Shown: one piece after another, positions 1 through 36,177 of the stretch
Layout: the number at the start of each line of letters is the position of its first letter
How positions within the stretch are numbered: position 1 is the first letter of the stretch
From: a virus
Lineage: Duplodnaviria > Caudoviricetes
DNA length: 36,177 nucleotides
Strand: one strand, 5' to 3'
Virus record (IMG/VR): IMGVR_UViG_3300017766_000457
Location: 1-36,177 of that record
Notes under the pieces: generated by a model
The model's input: the letters and a program-made list of their open reading frames with translations, nothing else
The model's database searches: none
What the model was told of the DNA's origin: nothing
Translations under genes and position numbers: made by a program

Positions 1-123
1 CGCTCGGCAGAGAAACTTAGATCGTCATAAGAAGGTAGCTCATTTACGATGTCTTTGTCGTAGCCCATTGCAATCAATTCTGACCGCTGCATGAGCTTGC
101 GATGAGCTACAAAAGGGGAGTCC
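1..123. repeat. Terminal overlap, copy 1 (identical to 36055-36177); indicates a circular assembly
   Basis: cgctcggcagagaaac...aaaaggggagtcc occurs at both ends; the portal reading frame runs through the junction. Confidence 0.97.
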
Positions 124-782
124 TCGATTGTCCTAGCCGCCTTGGAAATCAGGAACTCCTCCGGAGGTACGTTCTCAATCCTTACAGAACCACTCTTGTT
201 TGTCCGCTTGACCGTAACGTCATACGATGGAGCCTCAATGGGCATACCCATCATATCTACGCCAGCAGGGATCATCTCGACCTTCTGGCTTACGACAGTA
301 AGAGACTCATCAGACAGTAGCATGACCAATTCATCTTCAGTCAAGCTCTGGTATTTCTCTTTAATAACATCTTCTTTGGCATCCCAATACGACTTAACGA
401 TACCAACCTTCTCAAGCAGGGCATCCTTAAACCAGTTATGCAGGATCAGTAGACCTTCGTTCTCACGGTAGAACACCCAGTTACAGTAATCAGTAGCCTG
501 TTTAGCAGACTCCTCATCTTCAGCAGTCTTAGGCTCAAAGTAGACAATATCCTCTGTTGTCGTAAAGACACGAATAAGCTGTGGCAATGCACCATCGATA
601 GCCTCGGCTACCTCGCCAGTGACGATCTGGCTGCGACCTTCTACCTCATTACCATACGGATTGCGGAGATAGTAATCAAGCGCCTTACGACGCTCCTCAA
701 CGGTTTCTGTCTCAATGTATCCGATAGAGTCATCAATCTCAGATTCGACGATGCTCTTGATCTGGCCTTCATCCATCTTCAT
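1..782 (-). CDS. Portal protein, N-terminal part (continues across the junction into 36054..34734; 700 aa in total)
   Basis: Manual translation from ATG at 782 gives MKMDEGQIKSIVESEIDDSIGYIETETVEERRKALDYYLRNPYGNEVEGRSQIV...; in frame with the 470-aa ORF (782-92=690); directly downstream of terL. Confidence 0.9.
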   Translation of the reverse strand, partial: MKMDEGQIKSIVESEIDDSIGYIETETVEERRKALDYYLRNPYGNEVEGRSQIVTGEVAEAIDGALPQLIRVFTTTEDIVYFEPKTAEDEESAKQATDYCNWVFYRENEGLLILHNWFKDALLEKVGIVKSYWDAKEDVIKEKYQSLTEDELVMLLSDESLTVVSQKVEMIPAGVDMMGMPIEAPSYDVTVKRTNKSGSVRIENVPPEEFLISKAARTIEDSPFVAHRKLMQRSELIAMGYDKDIVNELPSYDDLSFSAE

Positions 783-809
783 AGCAAGCCCTTACAGGAA
801 TTTTGCTTA

Positions 810-2401: not shown

Positions 2402-3112
2402 TCATGCGCCGTAAATACCCTCGTATATATCCGGTCTGTTAGCCTTTATCCACTCTCGTGGTTCTTCATGGCATTTCTCAAAGTCTGTTCCTACTGTCTG
2501 GCTTCCTGCGTGATGAACATAAGCCCTTGATACGAAATGCTCAAACCCTGCTTTTTGCAGGTCATGGCATATTATATTATCGGAATACCAATTCGTGCTT
2601 GGAAACTTAGCTACATCCCATGCCTTACGAGTAACACTAGCAAATATAGGTGCTATGACTCCTGTGGGCTTAATGTAGAATTCACTCTCCCACTTTAATC
2701 CTGTCCGCTGATCTTCCTCTACTGGGAATCTAATGTTCTGGTCAGGCAATACGTAGTCCGATCTAGCACCCAAGAATCCGACATTTACGCCGTTTGATTC
2801 CAGAATCTCCGCATCTTGCTTTAGCAGATCTATAGCACTCGGTGTTATAACAACATCGTCATTAGATAGTATTACTGAGTCGTAACGTCCATGCTCAAAA
2901 GCATAATCTACCGCTGCATTGTAGGCATCGCCGAAGTTATCAGCTAGATTCGGCATCCAGACCAGATTAGGCAATATTGCTTTAGCTCTGTGCCATAAGT
3001 CCAGACTGTTGGATGATAGATATACAGGCATCGTAGGGGCATAAACTCTAATGCTTTCTAGTAATATCGTTACGCCGGGATTCTTTACCGTACAGATAAC
3101 TATAGCTTGCAC
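2402..3112 (-). CDS. GT-A fold (GT2-like) glycosyltransferase
   Basis: N-terminal beta strand, NFGDAYN, ILSNDDVV (DxD-like), YSDN and YVHHAGSQT motifs. Confidence 0.75.
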   Translation of the reverse strand: MQAIVICTVKNPGVTILLESIRVYAPTMPVYLSSNSLDLWHRAKAILPNLVWMPNLADNFGDAYNAAVDYAFEHGRYDSVILSNDDVVITPSAIDLLKQDAEILESNGVNVGFLGARSDYVLPDQNIRFPVEEDQRTGLKWESEFYIKPTGVIAPIFASVTRKAWDVAKFPSTNWYSDNIICHDLQKAGFEHFVSRAYVHHAGSQTVGTDFEKCHEEPREWIKANRPDIYEGIYGA

Positions 3113-3621
3113 AGGGTAACCTTCATAGATTCTACGGCTCGTGGAGTTCTCAGGATTTCCTGATCGTCAGCGCCATTTTCAGACATTTCTGAGCCTAGTT
3201 CCGACAACTTGAACTGAAGCTCTGCCAACCTAAAACCTGAGTCCCAGCCTAAATACCAACTCCACTCGGTATAGTACAGCCAGCTATTCTCATTGAATGC
3301 TCTTACGTGAGTAGGATCCTGCCAAGCGCCTAGACTTAGCTCATACGGTACGGATATAACGAACTCCCCACCGACTTTAAGTAAGTCTCGGCAGTTCCTC
3401 ATGGCGCTTACTAAGTCAGGAATATGCTCAAGAACATCGTTAGCCAGAATAGTGTCAAACATATCTGGTCTAATCTTGATCTGTCCGAATCGGGTATTTA
3501 CTAGCTCACCCCATTTGACTTTAGATATGTCGCAACACCAGTCAGGATTAACCCTTGCCTGAATGTCGGAATTTAGACAATCTTCTCTCCAGTCTTTGCC
3601 GGAGCCTAGATTTAATATCAT
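3100..3621 (-). CDS. Class I SAM-dependent methyltransferase
   Basis: ILNLGSG motif I, DVLEHI, LKVGGEFVISVP, DPTH. Confidence 0.88.
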   Translation of the reverse strand: MILNLGSGKDWREDCLNSDIQARVNPDWCCDISKVKWGELVNTRFGQIKIRPDMFDTILANDVLEHIPDLVSAMRNCRDLLKVGGEFVISVPYELSLGAWQDPTHVRAFNENSWLYYTEWSWYLGWDSGFRLAELQFKLSELGSEMSENGADDQEILRTPRAVESMKVTLCKL

Positions 3622-11414: not shown

Positions 11415-11444
11415 TTGCACACAGTCATCATTTTTAAGTATAGT
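11415..11444 (+). promoter_or_regulatory. Rightward sigma70-type promoter
   Basis: TTGCAC-18 bp-TATAGT preceded by an AT-rich tract. Confidence 0.6.
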
Positions 11445-12075: not shown

Positions 12076-12690
12076 ATGTCTGTTTATATCAAGCTGCAAA
12101 AAGCTAGGATGATGTTACAAGCAGCACCACTAAAGAAGTCAGGCCACAATAAGTTTGCCGGGTATCAATACTTTGAGTTAGGCGATTTTTTACCAACCAT
12201 TAACTCTATATTCTATGAAGTCGGACTCTGCTCAGTTATCAGCTTTGATAAAGAATTGGCTACTTTACGCATTGTCGATACTGATACTGGTGGGGCTATT
12301 ACATTTACTAGCCCGATGGCTGATGCCAATCTAAAGGGCTGTCATCCGATCCAGAACCTCGGTGCTGTAGAGACGTACTCACGTAGATACCTTTACGTTA
12401 CTGCTCTGGAGATCGTAGAGCATGATGCGCTAGACGCTACAACAGGCAGTGAATCGCCTAAGTCAGCCAAGCCAATTACTAAAGACGTATTTGACAGCAT
12501 GACCAGCGAGGAACAGGAAGCTATCCGCAGCATTGGTGTCAATGTGATTTCATTGCTATCAATGGATGATGTTGCTGGTGCTGTTGAGTATATTGAACAA
12601 TCAGAGTTAGACGCAGATTCTAAAACCGCCCTTTGGAGTCTGTTGGATAGTAAGCAACGGGCAGCAATTAAAAAATACACTACAAGGTAA
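12076..12690 (+). CDS. erf: ERF-family single-strand annealing protein
   Basis: KKSGHNKFAGYQYFELGD and QNLGAVETYSRRYLYVTALEI..D.LD signature. Confidence 0.9.
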   Translation: MSVYIKLQKARMMLQAAPLKKSGHNKFAGYQYFELGDFLPTINSIFYEVGLCSVISFDKELATLRIVDTDTGGAITFTSPMADANLKGCHPIQNLGAVETYSRRYLYVTALEIVEHDALDATTGSESPKSAKPITKDVFDSMTSEEQEAIRSIGVNVISLLSMDDVAGAVEYIEQSELDADSKTALWSLLDSKQRAAIKKYTTR

Positions 12691-12692
12691 AT

Positions 12693-12941
12693 ATGAGCAA
12701 TTTCGATAATACTAATCGCGGCATTCTGTCTAAGAATCTGAACAAGACAGCAGACAATCACCCAGAATACTCTGGCTCACTTAACGTAGACGGTACTGAT
12801 TACTGGTTGTCTGCATGGATTAAAGAATCTAGCAAAGACGGTAAAAAGTTCTTTAGTCTGTCAGTTAAGCCTAAAGATGCAGCAAAGCCTAAAGCTAAAC
12901 CAATGCCGGAAGAAGATTTTAACGATTCTGTTCCGTTCTGA
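12693..12941 (+). CDS. Small SSB-like protein
   Basis: Beta-rich core, Pro/Lys linker, acidic tail ending DFNDSVPF; adjacent to erf. Confidence 0.7.
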   Translation: MSNFDNTNRGILSKNLNKTADNHPEYSGSLNVDGTDYWLSAWIKESSKDGKKFFSLSVKPKDAAKPKAKPMPEEDFNDSVPF

Positions 12942-12946
12942 TCTAC

Positions 12947-13166
12947 GGAGAGAAAGCAAGCGGAGAGCTTTGGTCAGTTCATCTTAGCTTGTGAGTATCT
13001 CCACCTTTACGGCCTAAAAGCGGATGCTGTGAAATGGGTAGCTGGAATCTAATCACTGCCAGCCACAGACGTAGCGAGTAAGGCCACCTTTATGGGGAAA
13101 GCGGATGCTGGTAACACGGGGCTATCGAAATTCAGTTAGCCATACCTCCAGTGTAGCGAGTACCCA
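12947..13166 (+). ncRNA. Three tandem structured RNA units (12947-13002, 13011-13085, 13093-13166)
   Basis: Covarying closing stems GGAGA/TCTCC, GGCCT/AGGCC, TGGG/CCCA; constant RAAAGC...GYGAGTA; each ends in CCACCT. Confidence 0.75.
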
Positions 13167-13173
13167 CCTAATA

Positions 13174-13204
13174 CGCCAAGCCGGTAGTGGCGAGTAACAC
13201 CGGC
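13174..13204 (+). ncRNA. H-type pseudoknot
   Basis: CGCCA 13174-78 pairs with TGGCG 13188-92; GCCGGT 13180-85 pairs with ACCGGC 13199-204. Confidence 0.6.
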
Positions 13205-13238
13205 AGCAGGGGCTAGCCACTTTCTCTAGTGACCCTGC

Positions 13239-13368
13239 ACCAAGACGCATGAGGATTGGAGCCCGAGTCCGCAAGACTTAGTAGGCTTGCCAAAAGATAG
13301 CCAGCAGTCCTAGGAAACTCTGGATGAGACAAGCTAGATAGCCAGTCCTCAGTCGTGTTGGTCAACCA
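13239..13368 (+). ncRNA. Multibranch structured RNA
   Basis: ACCAAgACGcaTGAGGATTGG pairs with CCAGTCCTCAgtCGTgTTGGT; inner GCAA- and GAAA-capped hairpins. Confidence 0.6.
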
Positions 13369-13380
13369 TAGGAGAAATAC

Positions 13381-13572
13381 GTGATTCTTGATGAACTGCA
13401 AAAACGCTTTGACATTAAAAACGACCGCCAGCTATCCATTAAGCTAGGTGTAGCTGCCCCAGTAATTAGCCGACTGCGTAACGGTAAGGCTAAAGTCTCA
13501 GCAGAGATGATGATTGCTATCCATGAAGTATTCGGACTGCCTATTGCTGAGATTAAGGAACTGTCTAAATGA
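13381..13572 (+). CDS. XRE/Cro-like HTH regulator
   Basis: NDRQLSIKLGVAAPVISRLRNG; AGGAG RBS. Confidence 0.85.
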   Translation: MILDELQKRFDIKNDRQLSIKLGVAAPVISRLRNGKAKVSAEMMIAIHEVFGLPIAEIKELSK

Positions 13573-13880
13573 GCTGGAATGGCACAGAATTAGAAGTAAT
13601 TCGATGGGCTGAAGCTAGAGGAATCATCGCTAACTCAGACTCTAAAACACAGATGCTCAAAGCAGTCTCAGAGATGGGGGAGTTAGCAGATGCCATTATT
13701 AAACGGGATAGACCTGCTATTGTTGATGGCATTGGTGATGTGCTTGTTTGTCTTATTGTGGTGGGGGCTTTAGAAGACGTAAATCTTACCCACTGCCTAC
13801 AATCAGCCTATAACGAGATTAAAGACCGTAAGGGCTACCTCAATAAGAATGGAGTCTTCGTAAAAGATGGATCAAATTAA
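13569..13880 (+). CDS. MazG-like NTP pyrophosphohydrolase
   Basis: WAEARG...KAVSEMGELADA...DGIGD...AYNEIKDRKG. Confidence 0.88.
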   Translation: MSWNGTELEVIRWAEARGIIANSDSKTQMLKAVSEMGELADAIIKRDRPAIVDGIGDVLVCLIVVGALEDVNLTHCLQSAYNEIKDRKGYLNKNGVFVKDGSN

Positions 13881-34510: not shown

Positions 34511-34741
34511 TTACAAAATCTTAATCCTTTTTTCGTCAATCATCTTCTGAGCAGCAACACTCTCAAGATGAGATTCAATTGATTCTAGTACCATAAGACG
34601 CATATAAGCCTCCTCACGAAGCTCTAACTCACCATAGGTACTATTTATAATTTTGTTAAGCTCATTGCCTCGGAGATCTTCCATCATCTCCTGAAACATT
34701 GGTTCTCTAAGCAAGTTAGAAGCCCACTGTGCTTTATCCAC
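34511..34741 (-). CDS. Conserved small protein between portal and scaffold
   Basis: Overlaps the portal stop; helical. Confidence 0.75.
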   Translation of the reverse strand: MDKAQWASNLLREPMFQEMMEDLRGNELNKIINSTYGELELREEAYMRLMVLESIESHLESVAAQKMIDEKRIKIL

Positions 34742-36177
34742 CTGTCAGACTCCCTAGATCTTTAATAGCCTTTAAGACAATCTCAGCCTGTTTGTTACGG
34801 CTATTTTCATCAGCCAGATCCATTGCTAAGACCGCTTGCAATTGCTGGACTGCTAACTGCGCTTCTTTAATGCGGATCTCAGCCTGATCCTTCTGGTTCT
34901 TCATCTGCATCTCAATGCCCTTGCGGGTGAAGTCAGCCTCTAGCGTCTGACGCTCCAGATCCAACTTAGCAGCATCAATCTGTGCCTTAGCCTGTGTCTT
35001 CTCACGCTCTACCTGCGCCAACATCTGCGCCACTTCTGCCTGTGCATCAGGAGTAGGTGGTTGTGGCTGCGACAATTGAGCATCCATCTCAGGCGTAATC
35101 TCGTTCATGAAAGCATTAGCATCCTTGAAACCAGCCGCCTCAATGAACTTTGCTAACGTGTTACGGTATTGACCAATAGAAACAAGCGGATTAGATGGGC
35201 CATAAGCCTGAATAATCTGTTCCTGCTTGGCAAGAACCATCTGAAGCATCGTGAGCTTCTGATCCCGATCGCCTGAACCCAGACCAACATTAACGGATAC
35301 ATCGTATTCATTAGCCCATGTGCGAGGATCAAACTGCACGTACTTGCCACGCATACGGACAATCTTAGGCTTATCCTGATACTTGCCTAACAGATGCAGA
35401 ATGCCTCTAAACAAGCTCTTAACGCCAGTCTCAGCAAAGATACGGGCAATCAACTCCAGCTTGCCAGAGTTAGACTTCATCATCGCAGCAACCGCAGCCG
35501 CTGTTACGTTAGACAGAATGTCTGGATCAAGACCTTGTTGTGCATCACTAACACCAGTACGCTTGGCCTGTACTGCATCCATGTACTCCAGCATTGGCAT
35601 AGCCTGACCAAAGGTAGACTGAACCTGAAGCGGAACCAGAGCGTTAGGATTCTTCAGACGGACAATACCGCCGGGAGTAGCGTTAAGCAGGTCATCCAAG
35701 TTCACCTGACCGTCAACAGCGCCAACCCGGTTGTTATTCGTTAGGTAGAGATTATCGAGAGACTGACGAGTAATGGTGGACTTGATGAGCTGGATGTCCA
35801 TAGTCCTATCTGCCAGAGACTGACCGAAGAACTTGTGCGGAATTGGGATAGGGCAGATGCTATGGAACGGAACATAGTCACATTCTTCATCTTCTAGTAT
35901 TTCCGATCCGCAATAAACAATACGACGCAACTCAGCGATACCGTCATCATTCTCGTCAATACGGATATAGCACTCATATACCTCAACCGTCTGCATAGAA
36001 TGGTCAAGGGATTGCGTTTGATCTGGCTGTTCTCCGTTATCAAAACGAGCAACTCGCTCGGCAGAGAAACTTAGATCGTCATAAGAAGGTAGCTCATTTA
36101 CGATGTCTTTGTCGTAGCCCATTGCAATCAATTCTGACCGCTGCATGAGCTTGCGATGAGCTACAAAAGGGGAGTCC
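34734..36177 (-). CDS. Portal protein, C-terminal part
   Basis: YECY...DGIAELRR...PIPHKFFGQS...DIQLIKSTI.RQ.LDN; C-terminal coiled coil. Confidence 0.9.
   Translation of the reverse strand, partial: DSPFVAHRKLMQRSELIAMGYDKDIVNELPSYDDLSFSAERVARFDNGEQPDQTQSLDHSMQTVEVYECYIRIDENDDGIAELRRIVYCGSEILEDEECDYVPFHSICPIPIPHKFFGQSLADRTMDIQLIKSTITRQSLDNLYLTNNNRVGAVDGQVNLDDLLNATPGGIVRLKNPNALVPLQVQSTFGQAMPMLEYMDAVQAKRTGVSDAQQGLDPDILSNVTAAAVAAMMKSNSGKLELIARIFAETGVKSLFRGILHLLGKYQDKPKIVRMRGKYVQFDPRTWANEYDVSVNVGLGSGDRDQKLTMLQMVLAKQEQIIQAYGPSNPLVSIGQYRNTLAKFIEAAGFKDANAFMNEITPEMDAQLSQPQPPTPDAQAEVAQMLAQVEREKTQAKAQIDAAKLDLERQTLEADFTRKGIEMQMKNQKDQAEIRIKEAQLAVQQLQAVLAMDLADENSRNKQAEIVLKAIKDLGSLTGG
36055..36177. repeat. 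Terminal overlap, copy 2
   Basis: Identical to 1-123. Confidence 0.97.

Follow-up and report, generated by a model that had tools for sequence, protein, structure and literature searches.

A tandem array of candidate small RNAs in a tailed-phage genome, built on a recurrent carrier with variable cargos and RNase P-type ends

Introduction

The RNAs C4 of phages P1 and P7, CI of phage P4 and M3 of phage phi80, like host 4.5S RNA, are non-tRNA hairpins with paired ends and an RCC tail that arise from longer transcripts; according to the consulted part of PMC5499578, Escherichia coli RNase P cleaves hairpins that lack a T loop, as seen with 4.5S RNA and its CCC end, and cleavage of M3, CI and C4 by this enzyme is suggested. 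The sections of PMC10731613 consulted describe pairing between L15 of RNase P RNA and the 3' RCC and identify pairing of the leader with RCCA as an anti-determinant. In contrast with these RNAs, the locus described here contains many tandem modules on a shared carrier with exchangeable middles, and has neither an icd/ant operon nor a cis target.

Phage T4 provides a further comparison in species 1 and 2 of its tRNA cluster (RNA C and RNA D). These are stable non-tRNA RNAs that are co-transcribed and matured with the phage tRNAs and whose function is unknown. They are fixed RNAs, whereas the present array is based on a carrier with more than 200 cargos. In engineered tRNA-scaffold RNA display, a foreign RNA domain is borne by a stable tRNA-like end; the carrier, in contrast, is natural, based on loop E and not a cloverleaf, and the likeness is an analogy only.

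Two orphan RNA motifs, Proteo-phage-1 and Methylophilales-1, are listed as single motifs in the consulted part of Weinberg 2017 (PMC5737381), and DicF, as described in the portion of PMC5069750 consulted, is processed from a polycistronic prophage transcript.

Results

The window, i.e., the whole stretch of 36,177 nt that was analysed, is a complete circular tailed-phage genome of about 36 kb with a 123-nt terminal repeat. Matches to PHROGs were obtained for terminase, portal, scaffold, capsid, tail, lysis, primase/helicase, Erf, SSB and MazG. The portal gene spans the ends of the linear window (1-809 and 34734-36146, minus strand), and a small ORF at 3100-3621 (minus strand) of this phage, which has no tRNA genes, weakly matched phrog_4752, a family of tRNA methyltransferases (E 1e-5). 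The gap at 12942-13380 measured 439 nt and was the largest between the 67 ORFs retained as likely genes, the runner-up being 167 nt, in agreement with a preliminary description of the locus as the longest non-coding stretch. The order of genes in this short rightward operon was erf, ssb, the 439-nt gap, an HTH gene and a MazG-like gene, with the following features.

12076..12690, plus strand: Erf-like ssDNA annealing protein gene, upstream in the same operon (phrog_155, E 2e-23)
12693..12941, plus strand: SSB gene, stop codon 5 nt before the start of the array (phrog_7364, E 2e-16)
12947-13002, ACC at 13003-13005, plus strand: module 1, a variant of the carrier in which the closing stem has 5 bp and the inner arms are short, with a loop-E-type motif and a hairpin as cargo
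13011-13085, ACC at 13086-13088, plus strand: module 2, a full carrier holding a cargo of C0, the family seen most often
13094-13165, ACC at 13166-13168, plus strand: module 3, a full carrier with a 3-bp closing stem and a rare cargo
13174-13204, plus strand: module 4, a compact H-type pseudoknot without an ACC tail, distant kin of Proteo-phage-1
13206-13238, ACCA at 13239-13242, plus strand: module 5, a bulged hairpin with a loop shortened relative to the anti-Shine-Dalgarno-like loop of relatives
13245-13356, plus strand: module 6, a second carrier type with covarying outer stems and an 80-nt cargo of uncertain fold
13357-13368, plus strand: collapsed remnant of a seventh module, cargo lost (full module in relatives)
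13381..13572, plus strand: HTH protein gene, downstream, with its RBS at 13370 (phrog_4441, E 2e-8)
13569-13880: MazG-like gene, after the HTH gene (phrog_1992, E 3e-31)

Promoter-like sites were noted upstream of the array at 11416 and 11836, both of them consensus matches only and no more frequent than in shuffled sequence. No terminator-like site was found on the plus strand between 10800 and 14600.

The array is genuine and not a chance product. The six modules and the remnant tile 12947-13368 with spacers of 1-5 nt. Since z-scores for single-sequence folding were weak to modest (-2.8, -1.5, -1.4, -1.8 and -0.8), decisions about structure were based on homologues. In homologues, where the preliminary description had proposed to look for covariation, the closing stems covary. 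Borders could be given for six modules, the number that it had proposed, and four have a stem plus ACC. The outer 7-bp stem of module 6 covaries whereas its multibranched interior is unsupported (z -0.8, centroid mostly open), and TTGGT-CAACCA, previously read as a closing stem, would require a 2-nt loop and is a collapsed module remnant. Similarly, the ACC/CCA tails claimed for most modules are present on modules 1, 2, 3 and 5 but not on the pseudoknot or module 6, and the resemblance to CCA is partial, three of the four genuine tails being ACC-T and one ACCA.

Searches of IMG/VR with exact arm patterns gave approximately 240, 640 and 1500 stored stretches (estimates for overlapping sets of stretches, not genomes), and about 120 loci were fetched from each. 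These loci and 80 ssb-relative loci provided 327 unique modules with 25-nt flanks, a set that includes close relatives and in which, because fixed arm patterns were used for searching, conservation of the arms is partly built in. Closing-stem positions 1 to 3 were paired in 323, 322 and 320 of the 327 modules, with five or six pair types, and 85 closing-stem types were distinguished. Closing stems of at least 4 bp were present in 296/327 modules as opposed to 71 +/- 6 with shuffled partners, and sliding the register by one reduced this number from 296 to 126 or 49. The interior of the carrier begins with an NAAA/GAGUA loop that conforms to the bulged-G pattern of loop E. Two G-C pairs and a GGA/YA loop follow, and then an inner stem that covaries, with its pairs kept in 306, 305, 289 and 244 of 307 modules. 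An excess of G.U over A.C (92 versus 21) fixed the sense strand. A looser rule (stem, loop E and ACC) identified 251 unique modules, including module 1, in 558 viral loci and none in 120 shuffled loci. From comparison of these sequences, the carrier is a short closing stem, a loop-E-type motif, fixed inner arms and a variable cargo, followed by ACC, and is widespread in phages.

The ends of the modules resembled those of RNase P substrates. ACC followed directly after the stem in 236 of the 296 modules with at least 4 bp, compared with 13.6 for shuffled tails; in the window, modules 1, 2, 3 and 5 have such a tail. Position +1 was G in 220 and position -1 a pyrimidine in 204 of these 236 modules, the leader was A/U-rich from -2 to -5 and could pair with the tail (GG or GT) in only 5, and the closing stem measured 4-5 bp in 186, the length that a ruler would presumably demand. 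The known features of non-tRNA substrates, namely an unpaired RCC 3' of the terminal stem, G+1, a pyrimidine at -1 and a leader that does not pair with the tail, were thus all found. The fourth tail base was mostly T (144, versus 61 C and 31 A), which argues for selection on RCC rather than on an encoded CCA. Counted against cleavage were the absence of the ACC tail from 60/296 stems, the prevalence of C at -1 (152/236) although U is preferred, and carrier copies in IFTN6, PHB04 and an Achromobacter prophage whose short stems lie within longer RNAs. The earlier proposal of a processed small-RNA array was strengthened with respect to these predicted RNase P-type ends, which are well supported by covariation and by tail and leader statistics.

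Cargos of the 327 modules formed 211 clusters, and 28 of the 48 clusters with more than one member occurred in at least two different stems; cargo families keep their sequence across different stems and phages. Thirteen unique cargo variants of module 1 were noted among relatives, while the cargo of module 3 was found in one IMG/VR contig and that of module 6 in two, too few for covariation. Nearly empty carriers (cargo of at most 15 nt) accounted for 18/327 modules, and the cargos of IFTN6 and PHB04 were fully paired with a tetraloop. Overall, cargos were only mildly structured (mean z -0.85), a point counted against decoy action. At the ssb loci of relatives, the number of modules varied between zero and seven or eight, and their order varied too; among the 80 such loci, the pseudoknot was present in 49 and the module 6 carrier in 30.

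Four of 190 cargos scored 26 or more against 44 host tRNAs, compared with 0.2 for shuffled cargos and 0 for the antisense strand. The cargos at L428 and L380 comprise the core of a tRNA, D-arm through T-arm, and the carrier takes the place of the acceptor stem, the L428 module being called tRNA-Thr by ARAGORN; the finding of such cores as cargos indicates that carriers capture folded RNA domains. No likeness to tRNA was seen among cargos of the window. Mimicry of rRNA fragments (5S-, 23S- or sarcin-ricin-like cargos) was rejected, as 12/190 cargos scored at least 22 against E. coli rRNA versus 11.5 expected, and an origin of the arms or pseudoknot from tmRNA was rejected in comparisons with four host tmRNAs (no p below 0.1). 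Thus, cargos that are not tRNA-like showed no excess over shuffles against rRNA or tmRNA, and these comparisons provided no decoy partner for any cargo of the window.

The second stem (P2) of the module 4 pseudoknot, which has an A-rich loop 3, was fully paired in 82/85 candidates with changes on both sides. The stem of module 5 covaries among relatives, and an anti-Shine-Dalgarno motif occurred within 50 nt after the pseudoknot in 43/75 unique copies, as opposed to 10.2 +/- 3.0 in shuffled sequence, and in the loop of module 5 where that hairpin exists. The shortened loop of module 5 in the window lacks CUCC and thus the motif. Loops of relatives paired with RBS regions at -9.5 kcal/mol compared with -8.2 for shuffled loops. 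Pairing in cis with the RBS immediately downstream was rejected since it was no better than with permuted partners (-9.5 vs -10.4) and did not covary with that RBS. The pseudoknot-hairpin unit also occurs alone, for example in phages DU_RP_II and JK004. In Ralstonia phage DU_RP_II (L216, 2500-2600), the two elements lie in a low-complexity stretch within an annotated hypothetical gene, and this phage gave a weak match to CcsR1 (23 bits, cut-off 65). In Cronobacter phage JK004 (L217, 2359-2482) and in L500, an unannotated tRNA-like gene with an insert of about 60 nt in the anticodon arm lies immediately upstream of the pseudoknot.

The outer 7-bp stem of module 6 was fully paired in 55/58 unique copies. 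An identical module 6 was found near a different gene in the 51.8-kb phage contig L622, which carries the same dataset prefix and could reflect misassembly. At the site of the remnant, relatives have a stem, a cargo and a stem, with an AACC end in 23/45 unique copies, and the collapsed form of this seventh module is common to 12 loci. Another type of carrier, in which the arms are likewise fixed and the cargo varies, partially matched 111 cultured phage records, including the HK620 late leader, and had no Rfam match; it was noted at L151, L161, L231, L243, L330, L399, L613 1140-1230 and L614 1505-1610, one cargo being a T-arm. In L012, an array that contains a carrier also has, immediately upstream of it, a module with an ACC tail that resembles Methylophilales-1 (RF03011; 52.1 bits against a cut-off of 79.9). 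In some arrays, RNA modules are interleaved with a 48-aa ORF that has a signal-like N-terminus and about eight cysteines (L003/L123, L008, L022, L121, L128 and others; 18 loci and 10 variants in all); this ORF is absent from the window. Another side observation was a hairpin-rich, non-coding stretch of about 830 nt in an Achromobacter prophage (L208, 1260-2090), with three loop-E modules and no Rfam match.

Carriers elsewhere begin a median of 17 nt after the upstream stop, and single modules usually occupy the space from 13-17 nt past the stop of an SSB-type gene to shortly before the next RBS. Sixty of the 192 upstream frames found were tested, and 41 matched PHROGs, on the same strand as the modules; 18 of the 41 were SSB-type (best or secondary match), the commonest kind, and 7 were phrog_27714. 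The suggestion that the array occupies a slot where a tRNA cluster might be expected held for a minority only: just 6/323 carrier loci had a tRNA called within 600 nt, in each case on the strand of the module, whereas the usual slot is directly behind an SSB-type gene. All 10 of 10 tRNA contacts were on the strand of the modules, and modules in L013 and L311 were 13-15 nt from genuine tRNA genes. In the cultured phages IFTN6, PHB04, QDWS595 and CASP1, the last two of which infect Alcaligenes faecalis, modules share long non-coding islands with genes for tRNA or tmRNA.

Several observations concerned tmRNA. A permuted tmRNA (104.5 bits) missing from the annotated features of Bordetella phage PHB04 (L220, 460-797) lies about 600 nt upstream of a carrier module. 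Short frames in the P1 ban leader (L612, 1440-1470) and the HK620 late leader (L613, 925-957) resembled tmRNA tag peptides, and the ban-leader stretch scored 24 bits against permuted tmRNA.

Copies of the carrier in a Fluviibacter MAG contig, an Achromobacter prophage and Bordetella and Alcaligenes phages point to Betaproteobacteria as the probable hosts of carrier phages. A housekeeping RNA of the host was rejected as an explanation, as just 4/16 pattern matches in GTDB were true modules, all in phage-like DNA, and, for another variant, 1/301 genomes of the order Burkholderiales matched.

Comparison of the array with described RNA classes gave no complete identity. The statement that no module folds as a cloverleaf was borne out, as ARAGORN found 0 genes in the window and there was no match to RF00005; in place of a 7-bp acceptor stem with NCCA, stems were 5, 5, 3 and 6 bp with tails of ACCT (three) and ACCA (one). 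An Rfam search of the whole window, of the kind proposed in the earlier account, gave no family at its own cut-off and nothing at E<=1. On 12900-13420, the C4 and c4-2 covariance models had no match at E<=10, and the best match was that of module 4 to Proteo-phage-1 (RF03044; 16.7 bits, E 1.9, cut-off 42), where the second pseudoknot stem is common to the 3' half of the motif but the 5' hairpin does not align. Target boxes complementary in the manner of icd/ant or kil were absent from the operon, where the neighbours are ssb, HTH and MazG, although very short boxes could escape detection.

Relatives of module 5 share a C/U-rich anti-Shine-Dalgarno loop with Cuckoo/CcsR and DicF-type anti-RBS small RNAs. 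DicF, however, is cut by RNase E/III, whereas these relatives have a single loop on a bulged stem behind a pseudoknot and a tRNA-like end. The tandem hairpins of Cuckoo/CcsR with CCUCCUCCC loops were absent, the window having a single loop without CUCC and its relatives shorter anti-Shine-Dalgarno motifs. Family models of self-cleaving ribozymes (twister, pistol, HDV/theta, hammerhead) had no match, and only one pseudoknot was found in the cassette as opposed to the tandem pseudoknot repeats of type III antitoxins and their mimics. Readings as twister, pistol, hammerhead, group II domain V, SRP helix 8, K-turn or CsrA site were dropped on consensus features, with no Rfam match.

Neither the carrier nor the array is described in the literature found, and arm motifs were absent from six supplements of PMC10690425. 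Individual pieces may nevertheless figure among the 10,006 candidate viral RNAs modelled and tabulated in that study or in the supplement of PMC5737381. The array had been put forward as an undescribed system. This now applies to the carrier-plus-cargo design, which is in no family or paper found, but not to two of the module types, which are distantly akin to the orphan motifs Proteo-phage-1 and Methylophilales-1. Judged by these comparisons, the ends would work like those of C4, CI and 4.5S RNA, yet membership fails for C4, tRNA, Proteo-phage-1, cuckoo and ribozyme families, and the design appears new among the families and papers found.

Discussion

The reading that we prefer, with a confidence that stops a little short of even, is that of an accessory array in which carriers with interchangeable cargo are co-transcribed with erf and ssb, released by RNase P and active in trans, where their main role would be that of structural decoys for RNA-binding factors of the host. 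Co-transcription would very probably proceed from early rightward promoters, with no plus-strand terminator-like site in the way. Processing of tRNA transcripts by RNase P, RNase E and exonucleases, with CCA repair, is an established pathway. The modules would probably be matured in this tRNA style, RNase P cutting before the first G of the closing stem by way of the unpaired ACC, while RNase E and exonucleases would open and trim the A/U-rich spacers, and CCA repair may take part. A stem of 4-5 bp, loop E and two G-C pairs would set the inner loop about 12 steps from the cut, the position of the tRNA elbow.

The stable carrier might then display folded cargos to host proteins whose targets are tRNA or other RNAs, such as defence nucleases, tRNA-end toxins or regulators, a step for which our confidence is lower still. 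The acceptor-like end of the carrier may itself serve as bait, and a slot behind the strongly expressed ssb would supply the copy number that decoys need. Modules 4 and 5 would be more likely to act by pairing with ribosome-binding sites. Cargos could be swapped by recombination between short identical arms, plausibly aided by the adjacent Erf. Decoy action is preferred because no target emerged from three tests, some cargos are empty or fully paired, the only identifiable cargos are parts of tRNA, cargos are highly diverse and the array follows a gene whose product is required in large amounts. Counted against it is the low number of tRNA-like cargos, about 5/190 overall.

The same release by RNase P could instead yield cargos that pair as antisense seeds with mRNAs of the host or of rival phages and prevent their translation, as with C4, CI and DicF. 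This we consider unlikely for the array as a whole and most likely for modules 4 and 5, where its chances are about even. The anti-Shine-Dalgarno motif in copies after the pseudoknot, the better than shuffled pairing of module 5 loops with RBS regions, the weak CcsR1 match in DU_RP_II and an annotated dicF-like region in the comparable P1 leader speak for such a role, as does the existence of C4 and CI, given as RNase P-cut phage RNAs in the consulted part of PMC5499578. However, the antisense or guide function proposed earlier found no target in the phage genome, its start regions or genomes of the order Burkholderiales. None of six array parts had a complement in its own genome above shuffles, 66 start regions of the phage gave one nominal p of 0.017 in 24 tests, and the module 1 seed was matched in 27/201 genomes of that order, much like the reversed control. 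These tests are weak because the true host may lie outside the genomes compared, but empty carriers and the fully paired tetraloop cargos of IFTN6 and PHB04 offer no seed, and the module 5 loop of the window is without CUCC.

If the modules were instead cis-acting sites, RNase P cuts would uncouple ssb mRNA from HTH-mazG mRNA or tune stability, and cargos would be neutral passengers. The position of single modules between an SSB-type stop and the next RBS would fit, empty carriers exist, and RNase P cleaves some mRNAs, T4 gene 32 among them (consulted part of PMC11143913). We nevertheless regard this as improbable, since one site would do whereas as many as seven or eight different modules follow one another in relatives, some of which have no module in the slot, cargo families preserve their sequence across stems and phages, and the RBS that follows a module 5 loop is no better a pairing partner for it than other RBSs. 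A role as DNA-level cassettes, with arms as recombination handles or ssDNA hairpins (integron-attC-like or boundary elements) and no RNA function, would suit the proximity to erf and ssb, the exact exchange of module 6 with L622, the small gene interleaved in some arrays and the better folding of one strand, which is also seen with DNA energies. A loop-E-type motif and an ACC tail outside the stem are RNA features, and in attC AAC precedes GTT. The modules have both of these RNA features and the reverse order, GTT before AAC; they lie on the coding strand, as judged from the PHROG-matched upstream frames and tRNA contacts, and cargos are non-coding, which together make cassettes of this kind very unlikely. 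Less credible still are self-cleaving ribozymes or, for the pseudoknot, type III antitoxin mimics that separate or define units. Phages do carry pseudo-ToxI repeats, and the pseudoknot is a compact H-type with an A-rich loop 3, but no ribozyme or ToxI family matched 12900-13420 at E<=10, the pseudoknot is a single copy without tandem 36-nt repeats, no toxin is found among the neighbours, and there is no sequence likeness to host tmRNA pk1.

Returning to decoy action, a broader and rather doubtful proposition is that phages of Proteobacteria possess a natural RNA-display system, in which hundreds of domains, captured tRNA cores among them, would be plugged into an RNase P-matured carrier and reshuffled, as an RNA counterpart of small-protein anti-defence islands. 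RNase P-matured phage RNAs have so far been known singly (C4, CI, M3), whereas here a reusable carrier, missed by gene callers and Rfam, occurs in roughly two thousand stored viral stretches with more than 200 cargos, and its presence in cultured phages makes the system testable. If the cargos are decoys or regulators, they would amount to an extensive and as yet unexplored form of host takeover or counter-defence based on RNA. Several orphan Rfam motifs, and the long non-coding stretches next to phage tRNA genes that have lacked an explanation, would then gain a context, and the carrier would be available as a small, naturally occurring scaffold for expressing stable RNAs in bacteria.
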